A stretch of 64,000 nucleotides of DNA from an uncultured Chloroflexia bacterium (GTDB taxonomy: Bacteria > Chloroflexota > Limnocylindria > Limnocylindrales > CSP1-4): assembly GCA_963713075.1 (NCBI GenBank), contig CAVQKO010000014.1:367858-431857 (forward strand), written 5' to 3'. The translations under genes and the position numbers were made by a program. Below the pieces are notes generated by a model that did no database searches, had not been told where the DNA came from, and was given only the letters and a program-made list of their open reading frames with translations. This document shows positions 16,840 through 25,066 of the stretch, piece after piece (position 1 is the first letter of the stretch; every line of letters begins with the position of its first letter).

Positions 16840-18180
16840 TCAGCCGGCCGAACTGCCGGCGGCTTCGCTGACCTGTGCCTCCTGATCGGCCCTGCCGGGC
16901 CACTCGGCCGAATCATCGCGCGAGACCGCGTGCCACGTCACGAGGTCGTGGAGCGCAGCCTCCCACGACGCCGCATCCCGGTGGACGAGGCGCGCGACGA
17001 ACGCCCGGCGCGCCGCGGCCAGCGACGGCAGGGCGGCGAGCGCGAGCCGGTACCGGAGCGCCGCCGGGGTCGCCAGCTGGGCGGCCGGGAGCGCGATCGG
17101 CTCTCGCAGGAACCGCGCGTCGAGCAGCGCCTCGGAGATGCCGGTCACGGCGGCCTCGAGCGCTCCGGCCGGCAGCGAGCCGGTGAAGGCAGACCGCGCC
17201 ACGACGCGGAACAGGTAGGTGGCGTGGGCGCCCTCGCTGACCAGCTCCATCGCGATCAGGTTGCCCGGCAGCCCGACGAGGAACCACACCTTGGGGCTCT
17301 CGGGCCGGCCGGGGTCCTCCGGTGCGCAGGCCAGCCACCGCGGCGCGGCGTCACCGCCGCCGACCGCGCGCAGCACCCGGTACGACTCGTCGAACGGCGG
17401 CACGCCGAGCGTGGCCGCCTCGAGCAGCGGCCACGCGTCGCCCAGCTGGGCCGCGCTGGCGGGCCGACCCTCGAGCATCAGCTGTGTCGCGCTGGACCGT
17501 GCGCCGAACGGCGCGTCGGGCACGAGGGCCGTCACGATCGCCGCTGCGTCGGCGGCCGCCCCGTCGCGGAGGGCGGTCCAGCGCCGCGCGTGCTCCGTGG
17601 CAACCGGTCCGAGCCGCAGGAGCCGAAGCGCCGGCCCGCCGTCCACCGCTGCCGGCAGGCTCGGCCCGGCCCCGCCGACGGACACCCCGCCGACCGCCGG
17701 GTCTGGCCTGACCTCGCCGATGTCCGAGCGCCGGATCCGCCGCCACGGACGACGCTCGTCGAGCGGCGCGAGGACGACCCCGCGCTGGTCGTAGGCGAGC
17801 TGGCCGACGCCCGCCTCGGGCCCGGCCTCGTACTCCACCAGGTCGATCTCGGCGTCGGGGTCGAGCGCCACCAGCCCGTCGCCCAGCCGCTGGCGGAGCC
17901 GCCCGTCGCGGAGCAGCCGGACGAGCAGCCCGGTCATGGTCCCGAACCGCCTGAACTCCCAGCGCTGGGCGCCTGGCCCCGTCCCGAGGTCGACGGTGAC
18001 GACGCCGCCGTCGACCGCGACCGCTGCGAGGTCCCGGTACCCGGCCGACCATGCCGCAGCGCCGGCCGAAGCGACGGTGAGCCCGCCGTCGTCGAGGGTC
18101 ACCTGCGCCTCGCCCGAGGCCTCGCCGGGCCGGCTCACGTCCCCGCTCAGGCGGGCGGGCAGCTGCGTGGTCACCGGCAC
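16840..18180 (-). CDS. Hypothetical protein, possibly tandem PH-like domains
   Basis: Long ORF with protein-like composition, co-oriented 14 bp upstream of the zinc-ribbon gene; two beta-rich segments each followed by a helix. The fold call is inference and the start is uncertain. Confidence 0.6.
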   Translation of the reverse strand: MPVTTQLPARLSGDVSRPGEASGEAQVTLDDGGLTVASAGAAAWSAGYRDLAAVAVDGGVVTVDLGTGPGAQRWEFRRFGTMTGLLVRLLRDGRLRQRLGDGLVALDPDAEIDLVEYEAGPEAGVGQLAYDQRGVVLAPLDERRPWRRIRRSDIGEVRPDPAVGGVSVGGAGPSLPAAVDGGPALRLLRLGPVATEHARRWTALRDGAAADAAAIVTALVPDAPFGARSSATQLMLEGRPASAAQLGDAWPLLEAATLGVPPFDESYRVLRAVGGGDAAPRWLACAPEDPGRPESPKVWFLVGLPGNLIAMELVSEGAHATYLFRVVARSAFTGSLPAGALEAAVTGISEALLDARFLREPIALPAAQLATPAALRYRLALAALPSLAAARRAFVARLVHRDAASWEAALHDLVTWHAVSRDDSAEWPGRADQEAQVSEAAGSSAG

Positions 18181-18386
18181 ATCTCCCCTGCAGAACGCGC
18201 TCGGTCGGGCGCGAACGCTCTCGCCATCGTAGCGGGCCGCGCAGCGCCCCATCGCCGGGCCGCGTCGCGCTGGTCGGAGCGTGGGCCCGCGGGATAGGCG
18301 GTGCCGGCCGGCCGGGCACGACGGGCGCCCGGCGCCGGGGGTCGCGGCGTGCCACGCTAGCGCCGATCCGACGCGCGGAGGCGCCC

Positions 18387-19379
18387 ATGGCCGATCTCGC
18401 CCCAGAGCTGCTCAACTGGCTCGACGACCGCCTGCGCCCGGGGGACGACTTCCGGGTCCGAGAGGAGCGTGCCTGGACGCGCTGGCCGCACCGCTTCCGG
18501 CAGCGGGTTGAGGTCGGGCCCGAGCGTCTCGACAGTGACGCCCTGACGACGCGCGTGGTCGGGACCACGCCGCTGGTGGTCGAGGTGCGTGATCTCGACG
18601 CGGCGCTGGAGCTGGCCGTCGGCTCCAACCGCGTCGCGAGCCTGAGCGCGATCGTGGTCGACGAGCGCGATCGCTCGGTCGCGCTGGCATGTGCGGCGTC
18701 GATCCGACCACGCAACAAGGTGTGGCTGCTCGAGGTGCTCGGCGAGGTCCTCAAGCTCCAGATCGCCGTCCCCGAACTGGGCGACCCGCGGGCCCTGGCG
18801 GAGGGATTCGGGGGGCGGCCGGATCTCGCAGCGCACCCGCTCAGCGGGCCCCGGGGTCAACCGCACCCGGAACTCGAGGTCGTGGAGGCGTACCAGCGGG
18901 CCGGGCTGGAGCCGGGGCGGATCGCCGCGGGCATCTTCGCCGCGGTCGTGGGCGACCTCGCGAGCCGGGGGGTGCCGTCGGCCGCCTACGGCACCCTGCT
19001 CACCATCGGCGCCGACACGTTCCACCTGGGCGGCCCGGCACGGATCACGCTCGAGAATGCGACCCATCCCGGGTTCGGCAACGGCCTGCTGGCCGTGCTC
19101 CGGGCGTCGGGCGCCGCCGCGGCCCGGGATGCCGCCCGAGCGGTGAACGAGCTCAATCGACGGGAGCTGTGGGACCGCCTCGACGGGCAGTCGTTCGGCG
19201 CCTGGTCGTATGACGACGCCGGCCTGGGGCACATCGTCTTCTACCCGAACCGGCTGATCCCGCGCGGCATCGCCGAGCGGCGTGCCAGGCTGATCAACGC
19301 GGCGCTCGACGAGGTCCACCGCCTCGCGTGGCTCGACCGCGTCTGGCCGGTGCTGGCCGAGTCCGGTGCGCCTTCGTGA
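18387..19379 (+). CDS. Hypothetical protein, possibly duplicated YbjN/T3SS-chaperone-like fold
   Basis: RBS GGAGG before ATG; two similar halves (AVGSNRVASLSAIVVD / AVNELNRREL..FGAWSYD). The fold call is inference. Confidence 0.6.
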   Translation: MADLAPELLNWLDDRLRPGDDFRVREERAWTRWPHRFRQRVEVGPERLDSDALTTRVVGTTPLVVEVRDLDAALELAVGSNRVASLSAIVVDERDRSVALACAASIRPRNKVWLLEVLGEVLKLQIAVPELGDPRALAEGFGGRPDLAAHPLSGPRGQPHPELEVVEAYQRAGLEPGRIAAGIFAAVVGDLASRGVPSAAYGTLLTIGADTFHLGGPARITLENATHPGFGNGLLAVLRASGAAAARDAARAVNELNRRELWDRLDGQSFGAWSYDDAGLGHIVFYPNRLIPRGIAERRARLINAALDEVHRLAWLDRVWPVLAESGAPS

Positions 19380-19932: not shown

Positions 19933-20976
19933 GTGGACGATCCCGCCATCACGCCGGCGGCGGCCGGCTTCGCGATGCCGCCGGCATGGGCACCCCACGC
20001 GGCCACCCTGATGGCGTGGCCCTGCCGGATCGCGCTGTGGGGCGGGCTGCTCGACCAGGCCAAGGCGGAGTACGCGGCGATGGCGCGCGCGGTCGCCCGC
20101 TTCGAGCCGGTCTTGATGGCATGCCAGCCGGGCACGGCAGCCGAGGTCCGCAGCATGGTGGGGTCGACGGAACATCCGCTCGAGCCCCTCGAGGTGCCGC
20201 TCGACGACTCCTGGGCGCGCGACAGCGGACCGGTCTGTGTGGTCGACCGCGACGGTCGAGTGGCCGCGGTCCAGTTCGCCTTCAACGCCTGGGGCAACCG
20301 CTGGCAGCCGCATGCCGAGGACGCCCGCCTCCCCGAGCGGGTGGCGACGCACCTGGGGATGCGCCTGTTCCGAGCGCCGATGGTGCTCGAGGGCGGCGCG
20401 GTGGAGGTCGACGGCGACGGGACCGTGCTGACCACCGAGCAGTGCCTGCTCAACCCCAACCGGAACCCGGGCATGGGCCGCGGAGAGATCGAGGACACGC
20501 TCCGCGATTACCTGGGCGTGGAGCGCGTCGTCTGGCTTCCCTACGGCCAGGAGACCGACTGCGGCCCCGAGGGCACCGACGGCCACGTGGACGGGGTGGC
20601 GGCGTTCACCGCCCCGGGCCGCCTGCTGCTCGACGTGCGCGAGGATCCCGCGTCGCCCGAGTTCCGAAGCGGACGGGCCAACCTCGCGGCGCTGGCGACG
20701 GCGCCCGATGCGCGGGGACGGGCGCTGGAGGTCCGCACGTTCGACCCGGGGCCGTTCGCGAGCGTGGCGTACGCCAACCACTACCTCGTCAACGGAGCGG
20801 TCATCGTGCCGCTGGCTGGCGAGCCGGAGGCGGACGCCCGCGCCCTCGAGGCGATCGGCGAGGCGCACGGCGGGCGCGAGGCGGTGGGCGTGCCCGGCAT
20901 GGTGCTCGCGGCCGGCGGCGGCGGCCCGCACTGCATCACCCAGCCGATCCCGGCGGGCCCGATCGCGCAAGCGTGA
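19933..20976 (+). CDS. Agmatine deiminase family protein
   Basis: MPPAWAPHAATLMAWP, DSWARDSGP, LEGGAVEVDG, TDGHVD and GGGGPHCITQ (catalytic Cys). Confidence 0.92.
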   Translation: MDDPAITPAAAGFAMPPAWAPHAATLMAWPCRIALWGGLLDQAKAEYAAMARAVARFEPVLMACQPGTAAEVRSMVGSTEHPLEPLEVPLDDSWARDSGPVCVVDRDGRVAAVQFAFNAWGNRWQPHAEDARLPERVATHLGMRLFRAPMVLEGGAVEVDGDGTVLTTEQCLLNPNRNPGMGRGEIEDTLRDYLGVERVVWLPYGQETDCGPEGTDGHVDGVAAFTAPGRLLLDVREDPASPEFRSGRANLAALATAPDARGRALEVRTFDPGPFASVAYANHYLVNGAVIVPLAGEPEADARALEAIGEAHGGREAVGVPGMVLAAGGGGPHCITQPIPAGPIAQA

Positions 20977-21155
20977 CCGCGGACTGCAGCATCCCCGCAG
21001 ACCGCGCCCCCAAGCGGCCGTGCCGCGCCGTCCCGCGGGACGTGTCGCCCAGATGACAGCCGCCGCGTCGCATGGGGGCTGGTCAGCGGGGCCCTGAGCG
21101 CCCAACATGCACCGATCAGGGGCAACGGGGACCGAGACCACCAAGGAGCAACACG

Positions 21156-21374
21156 ATGGCCAAGGCGAGCGACATCCATCCCGAGGACCAGGCGAAGCCG
21201 ACCGACGAGGCAGCGGAAGCCGCCCTCGACCAGGAGGACGACGTCGAGGGCCACTCGATGCTCCCCAGCCCCACGGTCGGGCGCGAGCTCGCACGGGCCC
21301 GCAGCGCCGAGGTGGAGCGGTCGGTCCGGGCCAAGAATTTCGAGCACGAGGCCAAGCGGGTCTTCCGCCGCTAA
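21156..21374 (+). CDS. 72-aa peptide with acidic N-half, DDVEGH motif and basic helical C-half
   Basis: Strong RBS AAGGAG 7 nt before ATG, GC3-biased codons, and a hairpin after the stop. Confidence 0.78.
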   Translation: MAKASDIHPEDQAKPTDEAAEAALDQEDDVEGHSMLPSPTVGRELARARSAEVERSVRAKNFEHEAKRVFRR

Positions 21375-21417
21375 GCCCCCTCCGGCGCGAACCGCGCGAC
21401 ACACCGGATCATCACCC

Positions 21418-21454
21418 AGAGGGGCCGGCCCGCGTCCCGGGGCCGGCCTCTTCT
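21418..21454 (+). terminator. Hairpin/terminator downstream of the peptide gene
   Basis: AGAGGGGCCGGCCC ... GGGCCGGCCTCTTCT inverted repeat with a short pyrimidine tail. Confidence 0.6.
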
Positions 21455-21573
21455 CGTGCGCGCGCCCTGGTCGGCAAGCCCGCCGCGCCCGCCACCCGCT
21501 GCACGCCCGGCGGCCGGGCTGTGTAGCATCGCGTCCTCGGCCCGGATCGAGGCCGATCTCGTGGGAGTGGGGC

Positions 21574-22284
21574 ATGGCCGGCTCGCCGTCGAGCACCGCG
21601 TTCGCGATCGAGGCGCTGGGCCGCAGCGCGCTGTTCGCGCGCCTCACCCCAGAGGCGCTCGCCGCCTGCGCCGCCAGGCTGCGCATCCGCCGCTACCGCC
21701 GGGGCGAGACGATCTTCCACCAGGGCGACCTCGGCGACTCGCTGTACATCATCGAGTCGGGCGCGGTGAAGATCGTGCTGCCGTCGCCCGAGGGCGAGGA
21801 GGGGGCCATCATCGCCACTCTGGGCCGCGGCGACTTCTTCGGCGAGCTGGCCCTGCTCGACGGGGCGCCCCACTCGGCCACCGCGATCGCCAGCGATGCC
21901 GTGGATGCGCTGATCCTCCAGCGGGCCGTCTTCGCCGAGCTGCTCGAGACGCAGGCCGACCTGCGGAATGCGCTGATCGGGGGGCTCGTGGCGGAGCTGC
22001 GCAGGCTGACCGACCACGTCGAGGACCTGCACTTCCTCGACCTGCCCGGACGACTCGCCAACCGGATCGTCCGGGTGGCCCGCCAGTCCCGGCCCGGGGA
22101 GCTCCGTGACGTTCGCGTCGAGTGGCGGTACACGCAGTCTGAGCTGGGCGCGATGATCGGCGGCACCCGCCAGACGGTGAACCGGCTGCTGGCCGACCTC
22201 ACCGCCCAGGACCTCATCCGCATCGAGGGCGACGAGCTGGTGATCCCCGACCTCGACGCGCTGGCGCGGATCGCGGCACGATGA
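21574..22284 (+). CDS. Crp/Fnr family transcriptional regulator (cNMP-binding)
   Basis: IFHQGDLGDSLYIIESGAVKI, GDFFGELALLDGAPHSATA and HTH TQSELGAMIGGTRQTVNRLL. Confidence 0.93.
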   Translation: MAGSPSSTAFAIEALGRSALFARLTPEALAACAARLRIRRYRRGETIFHQGDLGDSLYIIESGAVKIVLPSPEGEEGAIIATLGRGDFFGELALLDGAPHSATAIASDAVDALILQRAVFAELLETQADLRNALIGGLVAELRRLTDHVEDLHFLDLPGRLANRIVRVARQSRPGELRDVRVEWRYTQSELGAMIGGTRQTVNRLLADLTAQDLIRIEGDELVIPDLDALARIAAR

Positions 22285-23150
22285 CCCGCGAGGAGCGGCT
22301 CCTCCGGTCGATCGCGCTGCGGGTGGAGGCCGCGCGCCGGCTCGAGGGGAGCGCCGCCGGCCAGGTGCTGCAGTCGGTCGTGGAGGCGACCGTCGCCCTG
22401 TTCGACGCGGAGGCGGCGTCGATCGCGCTGTTCGACGCAGCCACCGGCCGGCTCGTCTACGAGGTGGCGGCGGGCGAGCGCGGCCAGGGCGTCATCGGCC
22501 TCGCGATCACGCCCGACCAGGGGATCGCGGGCTACGCGTTCACGACCGGGCAGGCGCTCGCGATCTCCGATGTCGAGCGCGACGCACGGTTCGGGCGGGC
22601 GACGGCCGAGCGCACCGGTTACGTGCCGCGCTCGATCGTGGCGGTGCCGCTCCTCGACGAGCAGGGGACGATCGGTGTGCTCCAGGTGCTCGACAAGCGC
22701 AGCGCCGCCGCGTTCTCGCTCCAGGACGTCGAGCTCGCGAGCGTGTTCGCCCGCCAGGCCTCGGTCGCCATCCGGGCGAGCCGCGTGGAGCGCGACACCG
22801 CCGCCCTCCTGGCCATGACGCTGCGGCGCCTGGCGGAGGAGGGGCGAGCATCGCCGGACGCTGCCGGTGATGCGGGTGCCAGGGCTGACGGGGCCGGAGC
22901 TGAAGAGGCAGCGGCTGACGAGGCCGCCATCGACGCTCTGGTCGCGCGCGCCACCGCCGAGCTCGGGCGTGACGACGACTCGGGCCTGTGGCGCCTGGCG
23001 GAGCGCGTGGCCCGCCTGCGAGAGGCCGACCCCGCAGCGGTGGACCTGCTGGCAGACCTGCTCGACGTCCTGGCCGCCCGTGCGGAGCGGACGCGTCGCC
23101 GCGGTCCGGCCGACACCGCCGCCCGCTTCGCCGCGCTCGACGACGCGTGA
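22281..23150 (+). CDS. Stand-alone GAF domain protein with helical C-terminus
   Basis: AEAASIAL, QGIAGYAFTTGQ, RSIVAVPL..IGVLQVLDK and FSLQDVELA; ATGA overlap with the Crp gene. Confidence 0.88.
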   Translation: MTREERLLRSIALRVEAARRLEGSAAGQVLQSVVEATVALFDAEAASIALFDAATGRLVYEVAAGERGQGVIGLAITPDQGIAGYAFTTGQALAISDVERDARFGRATAERTGYVPRSIVAVPLLDEQGTIGVLQVLDKRSAAAFSLQDVELASVFARQASVAIRASRVERDTAALLAMTLRRLAEEGRASPDAAGDAGARADGAGAEEAAADEAAIDALVARATAELGRDDDSGLWRLAERVARLREADPAAVDLLADLLDVLAARAERTRRRGPADTAARFAALDDA

Positions 23151-23959
23151 CCGAGCTCCCCGTCCCGGCCTGGAGCGAGCCGTTCCTCACCGGGCGCCGC
23201 GCCTCGCTCGACCGGCCGCGCCCGCTCGGCCCGGTGGACCGCGAGCTCGCCTTCGGGGGCAGCGACGGCGCGGGGGTCACGGTCGCCATCGTCGATTCGG
23301 GCGTGGACGGCTCGCATGCGGCGGTCGGGGGTCGTCTGGTGGCCAGCGTCCGGGTGGCGCTCGACGAGGATGGCGCGCGCGTCGTCGACGACCCTGAGGG
23401 CCGCGACGTCGTGGGCCACGGAACCGCGTGCGCGGGGATCATCCACGCGCTTGCACCTGCCGCCGACATCGTGTCGGTGCGCGTCCTCGGGCCGGACAAC
23501 CGCGGCAAGGGCGCCGTGTTCGCCGCCGGCCTCGAATGGGCGATCAAGCGGGGAGCGACGGTGGTCAACCTCTCGCTCTCGTCGCGCAGCGAGGCGCTCG
23601 TCGGCGCGTTCCACGAGCTGGCCGACCGCGCGTACTTCGAGAACGTGCTGCTCGTCTGCGCCGCGAACAACGTGCCAGGTGCCAGCTACCCGTCGCTGTT
23701 CGCGTCGGTGGTCTCGGTGGCGGCCCACGACGTGCCCGACGCCTGGACCTGGTTCTACAACCCGAGGCCGCCGGTCGAGTTCGGGGCGCGCGGCGTGGGC
23801 GTCGAGGTGGCCTGGCGGGACGGGGGGCGCATCGTCGCGACCGGGAACAGCTTCGCGGCGCCGCACGTCGCGGGCCTCGCCGCGCTCATCCGCTCGAAGC
23901 ACCCCCAGGCGAGCCCCTTCGAGGTGAAGGCCATGCTCGCCGCGACCGCCGACCGGTGA
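23147..23959 (+). CDS. S8 family subtilisin-like serine peptidase without signal peptide or long prodomain
   Basis: Catalytic triad motifs AIVDSG, HGTACAG and GNSFAAPHV; GTGA overlap with the GAF gene. Confidence 0.9.
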   Translation: MTELPVPAWSEPFLTGRRASLDRPRPLGPVDRELAFGGSDGAGVTVAIVDSGVDGSHAAVGGRLVASVRVALDEDGARVVDDPEGRDVVGHGTACAGIIHALAPAADIVSVRVLGPDNRGKGAVFAAGLEWAIKRGATVVNLSLSSRSEALVGAFHELADRAYFENVLLVCAANNVPGASYPSLFASVVSVAAHDVPDAWTWFYNPRPPVEFGARGVGVEVAWRDGGRIVATGNSFAAPHVAGLAALIRSKHPQASPFEVKAMLAATADR

Positions 23960-24047
23960 CGGCGGGGTCGAGCGGACGCACGACCGCCGCCGGCGGGGCC
24001 GGCGGCGGCGGGGGAGGCGGGTGGTCGGGCGGCCGCCCGACCCGGGG

Positions 24048-25066
24048 TCAGCGCTGGAGGTCGGCCGGGGTGCTGAAGGAGCGCAGCGCCGCCATGTAGT
24101 TGGCCCGCTCGAACAGTGACGGGTCCTCCACGTTGGCCGCCGAGGCCGAGCCGCGGAGCTGGTCCACGGACTCGTACTCGTGCTCCTCCATCCAGGATGC
24201 GAGACCGTCGACGAGGGCCTTCATCCGCAGCACGCCGTGCTGGAGCACCGCCGACGCGGTCATCGCCACGTCCGCGCCGACCAGCAGCGCCTTGGCCGCG
24301 TCGACCGCGGTGTGGATGCCCGAGGTCGCGGCCAGGCCCACGCCGGGGCCGAGCTGCGGCCGCAGGATCGCGATCCAGCGCATCGGCAGCCGGAGCTCGG
24401 CCGAGGTGGACAGCGACACCTTGTTGACGATGTCGAGCGAATCGAGGTCGAGGTCGGGCTGGTAGAAGCGGTTGAACAGGACGAGGCCGCCCGCGCCGGC
24501 CGCGACGGCGCTCGACGCGAAGTTGGCGAGCGCCGAGTAGTACGGGCTCAGCTTCACCGCCAGCGGGATCGTCACGGCGGCGCGGACCGACGCGATCATC
24601 TCGAGGTCCCGCGCCTCGCGGTCGGTGCCGGTGAGGGCGGGGTCGGCGACAACGTGGTAGAGGTTGAGCTCGAGCGCGTCAGCACCGCTGTCCTGCATCA
24701 GGCGCGCGTAGCGGACCCAGCCGCCCGCGGTGGCGGCGTTGAGGCTGGCGACCACGGGGATCGACACCCCCGCCCTGGTCTTCTCGAGCCGGGCCAGGTA
24801 CCGGTCTCCGGTGCCCTTGTAGCCCTCGATCTGGGGGAAGTAGGAGAGGGCCTCGCCGAACTGCTCGTCACCCTGCTCGAGCGAGCGGTTGAGCTCGATC
24901 TCCTCGTTGAGGATCTCCTCCTCGAACAGCGAGGGCAGGACGACGGCGCCCGCCCCCGCCTCCTCGAGGCGCTTCACCACGGCCGGGTCGCCGGTCCACG
25001 GCGAGGACGACGCGACGATCGGGCTCCGCAGGGCCAGCCCGAGATAGCGGGTGCGCAGGTCGGCGC

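Follow-up and report, generated by a model that had tools for sequence, protein, structure and literature searches.

A subtilase and GAF gene pair tied to small genes with an acidic DVEG(H/Q) motif, a probable cyclic nucleotide-controlled peptide-processing module of soil Chloroflexota and Actinomycetota

We analyzed 64,000 nucleotides (hereafter, the window) of contig CAVQKO010000014.1, positions 367,858 to 431,857 of the forward strand, from the assembly GCA_963713075.1 of an uncultured Chloroflexia bacterium. In the window, a gene for a small peptide containing the sequence DVEGH is followed by the genes for a Crp/Fnr-family regulator (crp), a GAF protein and a minimal subtilase of peptidase family S8. 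The comparison of this locus with related loci indicated, at the level of sequence and gene order, that the S8 and GAF gene pair is genomically tied to small genes with an acidic (D/E)(D/E)-D-(V/T)-E-G-(H/Q) motif, either single or in tandem. The module appears to be widespread in soil Chloroflexota and Actinomycetota, and it probably represents peptide processing under the control of a cyclic nucleoside monophosphate (cNMP). As far as our literature search reached, the system is undescribed; among the papers listed by the search, none described the DVEGH motif or the module. We propose, with moderate confidence, that S8 acts on the peptides in a cNMP-controlled and motif-directed manner, recognizing the motif or cutting at it with His or Gln at P1.

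If this proposal is true, the module would be a widespread, unannotated route to small peptides under second-messenger control and would give a first function for a GAF-protease pair. S8 would also be a rare case of a protease with a recognition motif that can be read from genomes, and that apparently co-evolves with the S1 pocket. Gene callers overlook most of the precursor genes, and annotations give only the generic 'S8 family peptidase' for the protease and 'GAF domain protein' for its partner. Cultured carriers make the proposal directly testable; they are the motif carriers Geodermatophilus sp. CPCC 205761, Nocardioides tweenelious CN2-186 and Aeromicrobium panaciterrae JCM 16926, as well as Sphaerisporangium sp. 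B11E5.

Linkage of the S8 and GAF genes with the motif peptides

The window peptide reads MAKASDIHPEDQAKPTDEAAEAALDQEDDVEGH followed directly by SMLPSPTVGRELARARSAEVERSVRAKNFEHEAKRVFRR. Its acidic N-terminal half with DQEDDVEGH is followed by SMLPSP and by a basic helical C-terminal tail. It matched no family in Pfam, and its seven homologs are all labelled 'hypothetical protein'. Among four close orthologs, 62 of 84 differences fell at third codon positions, and the orthologous open reading frames (ORFs) are likewise preceded by GGAG or AAGGAG sites. The first-pass annotation, made from the sequence alone, had described an ORF of 72 amino acids (aa) with a ribosome-binding site (RBS), its own hairpin, an acidic half and a basic half, and this description holds for the coordinates, the AAGGAG and the 13-bp hairpin (Table 1). 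A profile of ten relatives of the peptide detected, at E ≤ 0.001, 248 cluster representatives, almost all of them 47–178 aa long, and the motif was present in 137 of the best 150. The peptide forms A, B and C have nothing in common but the motif. In the six frames of the 4.9-Mb genome (17 contigs), the strict motif [DE][DE][VT][EQ]GH occurs four times, and three of these occurrences fall in two real-looking ORFs, the one of the window and one on contig C4. Because the strict motif is so rare in the genome and yet lies beside S8 in most related loci, a DVEGH ORF beside S8 is, on this sequence comparison, more than chance.

Through S8, 38 loci were fetched. The order crp-GAF-S8 was kept in the Chloroflexota loci, and GAF-S8 without crp was found in 13 Acidobacteriota-type loci; the stop codon of the GAF gene overlaps the start of the S8 gene in most loci, including those of Acidobacteriota. 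A small ORF with DVEG(H/Q) was detected in 21 of the 23 Chloroflexota loci and in the one Ilumatobacteraceae locus (L035), and the two Chloroflexota loci without it (L001 and L013) lie on contigs that break off at crp or shortly before it. The placement of the ORF varies. Some are 5' of crp, in either orientation; others separate crp from the GAF gene, or are convergent with S8 and lie just 3' of it. The Acidobacteriota loci (L022–L034) contained no conserved small ORF beyond shadows of real genes. In these loci, a gene for a secreted S41-like peptidase flanks the GAF and S8 genes, and two M16-type genes were present in four of the seven loci compared (named by eye).

The reverse direction was followed with a nucleotide pattern encoding two DVEGH motifs, which contained no S8 reference and matched at least 121 stretches, 80 of them with DNA. 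Among the matches listed, 61 of these 80 loci had S8 and/or the GAF gene at a distance of up to 2 kb; these were 39 of the 51 loci from Actinomycetota, 22 of the 27 from Chloroflexota and none of the two with other labels. From the remaining motif loci, all five genomes tested encode S8 elsewhere, in one case 8–10 kb away, and S8 was present in 13 of 15 genomes with DTEGQ-type peptides. For a negative control, a looser pattern was applied to nine S8-negative genomes of the class Limnocylindria, to which the relatives of this genome belong, in a tally that takes in six flagged genomes; none of the 20 matches was a small ORF with the upstream box described below, and all 20 lay in long, spurious-looking frames. 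The first-pass annotation had expected DVEGH-like ORFs beside homologous GAF-S8 pairs, and they were found in Chloroflexota and Actinomycetota by the searches in both directions.

A third clade was obtained with a search seeded with the kinase-fused S8 relative P0028, which gave ten actinomycete loci with the order S8 then GAF (L252–L261). In several of them, an ORF of ~1040–1100 aa precedes the pair; in L256, the only locus that was scanned with Pfam, this ORF is a class III cyclase containing AAA_16. Overlapping genes for the peptide, the cyclase, S8 and GAF are exemplified by L256:1559-6366; in Sphaerisporangium sp. B11E5 these four overlapping genes form a single operon. Seven of the ten loci contain small ORFs in which the motif is varied. 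These encode DEV(Q/E)AH (x3), GGD(V/T)EGH (x6), leader-like peptides of 62–70 aa ending with AGEVEG(Q/H)-E(L/V)KL(V/I) or EEDDVMAH-DYKIL, with five residues after the motif, and peptides of 41–51 aa with (D/E)VVAHS...WCGVHQ. From these variants, the common denominator of the motif is therefore acidic-V/T-x-G/A-H/Q.

The S8 ortholog occurs as a single copy and has a patchy distribution. It was found in 60 of the 151 genomes sampled from the class, a tally that takes in two genomes flagged as unpublished (G087 and G123); it occurred in 0 of 49 genomes of one family and in 39 of 50 of another.

Cyclic nucleotide sensing and the TGTC-N8-GACA box

In the GAF protein, Pfam assigned the GAF domain and left a tail of ~120 aa without a family, for which the structural model shows the long helix and the helical bundle. 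The protein can be aligned over its whole length in three phyla. The solved structures closest to it are cAMP- or cGMP-binding GAFs, i.e., those of PmGH, CyaB2, Lcd1 with cAMP, and PDE2A/5/10/6 (E from 1e-34 to 1e-24), with profile E-values of 1.9e-30 to CyaB2, 3.6e-28 to Lcd1 (cAMP complex) and 1e-24 to GAF-B of PDE2A. Foldseek also ranked the cAMP/cGMP-binding GAFs first for the model, and the signature ...DPRF...TGY.(T/P)RS(I/L)LAVPL is shared with the cNMP-binding GAFs. Judged by this close relation to the solved cAMP/cGMP GAFs, the GAF protein appears to be of the cNMP-binding kind.

The window Crp has the domain order of the Crp/Fnr family, with PF00027 at 93.5 bits and PF13545 at 54.7 bits. 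Its identification as an equivalog of E. coli CRP was rejected at 96 against 266 bits. At the position of the Arg in the phosphate-binding cNMP cassette (G-E-L...R-S/T-A), nine of 18 aligned Crp rows have Arg and nine have His. An exact TGTC-N8-GACA box is located 104–135 nt 5' of 22 of 24 peptide ORFs. It was found in 85 of 129 peptide loci, in both phyla, and also 5' of crp in five loci. The 692 kb of peptide loci contain 132 boxes, compared with 14 exact sites in all 4.9 Mb of the genome; for the window alone, one box against 0.75 expected is non-significant, and the weight of the box comes from the comparison only. TGTC-N8-GACA is quoted in PMC7306483 as the consensus of the Crp/Fnr-family regulator CooA. 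In 82 of 121 sites, a further GTC stands 8 nt beyond the box. The operator appears tripartite, with GTC/GAC/GTC elements ~12 nt apart on one helix face, unlike the usual single Crp palindrome, which may reflect the binding of a second dimer or an overlap with a promoter element. It is more likely that Crp regulates the transcription of the peptide gene than that it reads a proteolytic event.

Two of the 14 boxes of this genome precede its two DVEGH genes. The second of these genes, on contig C4:430160-432464 (L059:1160-3464), encodes two DVEGH motifs and EGH variants and has its own hairpin. It is followed by a gene for a major facilitator superfamily (MFS) transporter fused to a cNMP_binding domain, and a DVEGH gene adjoins an MFS::cNMP_binding gene in many other genomes as well. 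On contig C10:178106-180231 (L061), an exact box separates a second MFS::cNMP_binding gene from an ORF of 63 aa that has a good RBS and no DVEGH, and that may likewise belong to the regulon.

The box-preceded DVEGH genes that lie away from S8, beside MFS::cNMP_binding genes, would also be expected if the parts of the module were co-regulated without interacting. The acidic peptides would then be disordered stress or metal-binding proteins induced through cNMP and Crp, and S8-GAF would be a cNMP-gated housekeeping protease, as would suit the GAF-S8 pairs without peptides in Acidobacteriota. However, S8 is present in the tested peptide genomes (5 of 5, and 13 of 15), and the S8-negative genomes gave 0 of 20. 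In addition, the exchange of His for Gln in the motif speaks against metal binding, and the covariation of the S1 loop and the cognate pairs of the genome G163, both described below, are left unexplained. We regard such independence of the peptides and the protease as quite unlikely.

The genome encodes four class III cyclase domains, the nearest one ~62 kb from the module. At the locus L038, the gene for a zinc-ribbon class III cyclase is oriented divergently from the box. A cyclase signal that activates a protease effector via GAF, with the peptides as decoys or pro-toxins, would make the module a Pycsar-like anti-phage defence. The patchy distribution in the class and the cyclase-S8-GAF operons of the third clade fit this idea, and PADLOC reported 'subtilase' at 67.8 bits, PycC at 63 bits for the L256 cyclase, and matches of the cNMP domains to Pycsar effectors at 29–38 bits. 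These PADLOC matches, however, are to shared domains only. The neighbours of the module in the window are housekeeping genes that are syntenic in L003, the S8 tree largely follows the phyla, and an HTH regulator with a conserved operator 5' of the peptide genes is not a feature of Pycsar. Membership in Pycsar, in which a PycC cyclase stands beside a cNMP-domain TIR or TM effector, was rejected, as no cyclase was found within 14 kb of the module. A defence function is very improbable.

The motif, the S1-forming loop and the proposed processing

The S8 protein matched PF00082 at 104.6 bits. It has the Asp-His-Ser triad in order together with the oxyanion Asn, and its model (pLDDT 91) shows the subtilisin fold, with a Foldseek E-value of 8e-19 to BPN'. 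Generic BPN' variants ranked first in Foldseek, and no special relative was indicated. In 26 orthologs, D50, H91, N175, S235 and the GNS (T232-G-N-S235) are invariant. No I9 prodomain was found by Pfam and no hydrophobic leader was seen by eye, and the N-terminal extension is only ~18 residues, because residue 38 of S8 falls on residue 20 of the mature BPN' sequence in the alignment. Two further claims of the first-pass annotation were borne out by these data, i.e., an S8 without a signal peptide or long prodomain and with GNS instead of the usual GTS before the catalytic Ser, and a run of overlapping crp, GAF and S8 genes, for which ATGA (crp/GAF) and GTGA (GAF/S8) overlaps were seen. The motif PAWSEPF lies in the N-terminal extension, and PAW(S/G) is present in the S8s of every peptide-associated clade; the S8s of Acidobacteriota are without it.

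In the ESM Atlas, only unnamed Chloroflexota clusters were matched, at 0.87–0.89, under the lead level of 0.9. Among the 120 longer S8 homologs listed, 22 are GAF-S8 fusions; many of these are singletons from long-read metagenome-assembled genomes (MAGs), where a one-base error would fuse overlapping genes. Of the 120 homologs, 61 have a C-terminal Ser/Thr kinase domain, and a few have cNMP_binding/HTH_Crp or MFS_3. The kinase-bearing S8s (P0022–P0102, e.g., P0028; ~60 proteins, 49–58% identical) are from Acidimicrobiales and other Actinomycetota and have the kinase domain instead of a GAF neighbour. In-frame N-terminal extensions of S8 in L233, L247, L248 and L035 were rejected as fusions, and they look like Arg-rich non-coding frames.

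The motif was tabulated from 502 contexts collected by D[VT][EQ]G[HQ], which gave D 100%, V 63% or T 36%, E 98%, G 100%, and H 70% or Q 29%; these core frequencies are set by the search, and the flanks are the free observation. Two or three acidic residues precede the motif, and Arg, Lys, Gly or Ser follow it. The repeat length is 11–36 residues, mostly 14–18, and is partly set by the search pattern. The spacers are near-identical within a gene and unrelated between taxa. Thus, a conserved motif flanks variable cassettes and the protease is adjacent, as in a RiPP-like multi-cassette precursor. No post-translational modification enzymes were found among the window neighbours (other loci were not systematically screened). 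A separate pattern detected DTEGQ repeats in 42 loci of both phyla, and therefore His is exchangeable for Gln. Because the motif is the sole conserved element, is repeated with variable spacers, and has a last residue that co-varies with the S1-forming loop of S8, it appears to behave like a protease recognition site.

In the HMMER alignment, Asn175 of S8 corresponds to Asn155 of BPN', V176-S180 to the 156–166 loop, and S183 to position 169; we take positions 156, 166 and 169 of BPN' to be the classical determinants of the S1 subsite. Residue 176 is V, L or Q in 52 of the 58 S8s of the H type and M or Y in three, compared with M or Y in 19 of the 27 S8s of the Q type. Ala183 occurs in none of the 58 H-type and in 12 of the 27 Q-type proteins. 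In a tree of 71 S8 rows, the Q type has at least three origins, and Ala183 arose twice, both times inside Q clades. The MAG G163 (L249:6630-11128; L250/L251) carries two complete modules, one with an 'AANNV' S8 beside a DVEGH peptide, and the other with an 'SASNT...PGQP' S8 beside DDDTQGQ/DDDTEGQ repeats. The S8 gene of the latter is divided between the ends of two contigs, and the bin is possibly a mixture.

In the mechanism that we propose, the cyclic nucleotide would act at two levels, the Crp-family regulator and the GAF partner. Via the adjacent regulator it would switch on the peptide gene, and via GAF it would gate the S8 protease. S8 would dock the motif in its substrate cleft, with Val/Thr at P4 and His/Gln at P1, and would cut after His/Gln. 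In the window peptide, this cut would split the acidic N-terminal part from a basic helical C-terminal part of 39 residues, and the repeat peptides would be diced into pieces of ~14–18 residues. The products may be exported by the MFS::cNMP transporters, because DVEGH genes adjoin MFS::cNMP_binding genes in many genomes. A more far-reaching version, in which disordered poly-motif precursors are cut after every DVEG(H/Q), species-specific peptides leave through a cNMP-gated MFS as signals or effectors, and co-evolving cognate H and Q pairs serve as orthogonal channels within one cell, is a tentative possibility. The first-pass annotation had imagined an intracellular proteolytic circuit, in which the peptide is cleaved near DVEGH, or acts as a propeptide or inhibitor, and GAF and Crp gate or read the event. 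The linkage of DVEGH ORFs with GAF-S8, the resemblance of the motif to a recognition site and the cNMP kind of the GAF agree with this circuit; the more likely transcriptional role of Crp and the 13 Acidobacteriota pairs without peptides do not.

Complex prediction of S8 with the window peptide, which the first-pass annotation had suggested, gave a score of 0.50 (runs, 0.36, 0.54 and 0.50), and the best of three controls gave 0.01. The contact agreement of the runs was at least 72% and the partner pLDDT at least 58. In calibration, 58 of 80 solved complexes and 2 of 110 mismatched pairs reached the mark; at 0.60 or below, it was reached by only 7 of the 80 and by both of the passing mismatches. 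The prediction used alignments of our own, and solved complexes of subtilisin with prosegments or inhibitors exist, so that the score may reflect likeness to them. The prediction weakly supports a complex of S8 with the peptide.

Several points weigh against motif-directed processing under cNMP control. With a score in the band of 0.50, a predicted complex is wrong in more cases than it is right unless the pairing was already likely, and no interface was given. The window peptide has a single motif, to which dicing is inapplicable, and no cyclase and no exporter were found within ~14 kb of the window module. The cassette of the window Crp, FGELALLDGAPHSATA, contains PHSA and not PRSA, with His in place of the cassette Arg, and the exact box is missing from 44 of the 129 peptide loci. 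The assignment of residues 176 and 183 as S1 determinants is based on sequence alignment and the background of subtilisin engineering, not on model coordinates. Eight of the 27 Q-type S8s have neither M nor Y at 176, one of which (L239) probably belongs to an H-type module, and the H and Q labels for L234–L248 were given per genome and not per locus. An independent-pairs sign test of motif type against residues 176 and 183 was not significant, with three informative pairs and few events. No motif peptide was found in three of the ten loci with the S8-GAF order, and the 13 GAF-S8 loci of Acidobacteriota had no motif peptide, box or crp within ~5 kb. Since these 13 pairs are without peptides, the GAF-S8 pair would be older than the peptides and would have another substrate there.

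The linkage and the S1-loop covariation fit binding as well as cleavage, and the peptides could instead be regulators of the protease. The motif would then be a pseudo-substrate, or a trans-acting folding or inhibitory segment for the missing I9; the repeats would titrate S8-GAF units, and cNMP-bound GAF would release or strengthen the inhibition. An S8 without a prodomain is in accordance with such regulation, as is the same weak complex score (0.50 against 0.01 for the best control), and PDE6-P-gamma complexes, in which the small disordered P-gamma is bound to the GAF-containing PDE6, are among the fold neighbours of the GAF protein. On the other hand, the catalytic residues are invariant, and therefore S8 does seem to cut something. 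A short conserved motif, hypervariable spacers and five-residue tails (ELKLV, DYKIL) resemble precursor processing, and tight inhibitors usually have a structured scaffold. We consider it unlikely that the peptides are regulators only, and prefer their motif-directed processing by S8.

Layout of the window locus and comparison with known systems

The features of the locus are listed in Table 1. The peptide gene is uncoupled from crp by a gap of 199 nt on its 3' side. The hairpin in this gap has a folding energy of -51.7 kcal/mol for 99 nt (z -2.8), and was not called by the terminator scan because of its T-poor tail. A scan of positions 20800–24300 detected no sigma-70 promoter and no intrinsic terminator. 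Upstream of the module is a housekeeping gene of the agmatine-deiminase type (PAD_porph), and downstream, on the other strand, are a DHO_dh-like gene and pyruvate:ferredoxin oxidoreductase, also of housekeeping character. Two well-supported ORFs directly 5' of the agmatine deiminase gene, at 16840-18252 (-) and 18387-19379 (+), encode 470 and 330 aa with a GC3 of 0.90–0.93 and matched no Pfam family at E ≤ 1e-5.

Table 1. Positions of the module features in the window.
Feature	Position	Strand	Remarks
Candidate Crp/Fnr-type operator	21043..21069	+	Palindrome TGTCGCCCAGATGACA (21043-21058) and GTC at 21067-21069, 8 nt on; 113 nt 5' of the peptide start codon
RBS AAGGAG	21143..21148	+	7 nt 5' of the peptide ATG
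DVEGH peptide gene ('type A'), 72 aa	21156..21374 (ATG to stop)	+	DVEGH residues 29-33 = nt 21240-21254
13-bp G+C-rich hairpin	21419..21452	+	3' of the peptide gene; possible terminator or attenuator
crp, Crp/Fnr-family regulator, 236 aa	21574..22284	+	Pfam cNMP_binding and HTH_Crp_2; cassette PHSA
GAF protein gene, 289 aa	22281..23150	+	GAF domain 28-164, long helix, C-terminal helical bundle 207-288
Leaderless minimal S8 subtilase gene, 270 aa	23147..23959 (GTG start)	+	Peptidase_S8 residues 41-268
S8 catalytic residues	D50 23294-23296, H91 23417-23419, N175 23669-23671, S235 23849-23851	+	Invariant in 26 orthologs
S8 N-terminal PAWSEPF	23165-23185	+	Within the short N-terminal extension
S8 S1-forming loop	V176-S180 and S183		Based on alignment with BPN'

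Among the known systems, the cyanobactin proteases PatA/PatG with the precursor PatE are similar to the module in having an intracellular S8 beside a small precursor gene, in which recognition sequences flank variable and often repeated cassettes. The P4-P1 residues of the window motif (hydrophobic-Glu-small-small) resemble the PatA site, which we take to be G(L/V)E(A/P)S. In contrast to cyanobactin loci, no heterocyclase, macrocyclase insert or domain of unknown function (DUF) is present here within 14 kb, and the partners are the GAF protein and Crp. Assignment to PatA/PatG (TIGR03895) was rejected at 29 bits against a cut-off of 421 bits, with no tailoring genes within 14 kb. QhpE, which removes the leader of QhpC in the quinohemoprotein amine dehydrogenase, is also a minimal leaderless S8 of similar size, and has one dedicated small peptide there. 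Its model (NF049966) was the second best in NCBIfam and was rejected at 101.1 bits against a cut-off of 165 bits, with no qhp genes (the radical SAM enzyme QhpD, the transporter QhpF, dehydrogenase subunits) nearby.

The best-scoring NCBIfam model was that of the mycosin of the type VII secretion system (TIGR03921), an actinobacterial-type S8. This assignment was also rejected, with 118 bits against a cut-off of 278.75 bits, no ESX-type families among the 16 neighbours, and neither a signal peptide nor a membrane anchor in the protein; mycosins are exported and membrane-anchored. The intracellular serine proteases (ISPs) of Bacillus share with S8 the cytoplasmic location without an I9 prodomain and the short conserved N-terminal extension (here PAWSEPF), and in the PDB, S8 matched an 'intracellular serine protease' chain by sequence with an E-value of 5e-18. 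In contrast to S8, ISPs act alone as bulk proteases; they are not accompanied by a GAF partner, by dedicated peptides or by a Crp box, and their N-terminal extension carries the autoinhibitory motif LIPY/F.

The cNMP-binding GAFs of PDE2/5/6/10, CyaB2 and Lcd1 are similar to the partner of S8 in sequence and fold class, and in the arrangement of a GAF sensor that gates a catalytic partner; in PDE6, an inhibitory subunit that is small and disordered is bound as well. In these systems, however, the output phosphodiesterase or cyclase is in the same chain as the GAF, whereas the protease is separately encoded here. Finally, the candidate operator resembles those of CooA and CRP (TGTC-N8-GACA and TGTGA-N6-TCACA), as it is a 16-bp site of two-fold symmetry beside a Crp/Fnr-family gene, and its specified bases are those of the CooA consensus as given in PMC7306483. 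It differs from the CooA operator in the third GTC, 8 nt to the 3' side in 82 of 121 sites, and the regulator encoded beside it is predicted to have a cNMP cassette and not the haem site of CooA.

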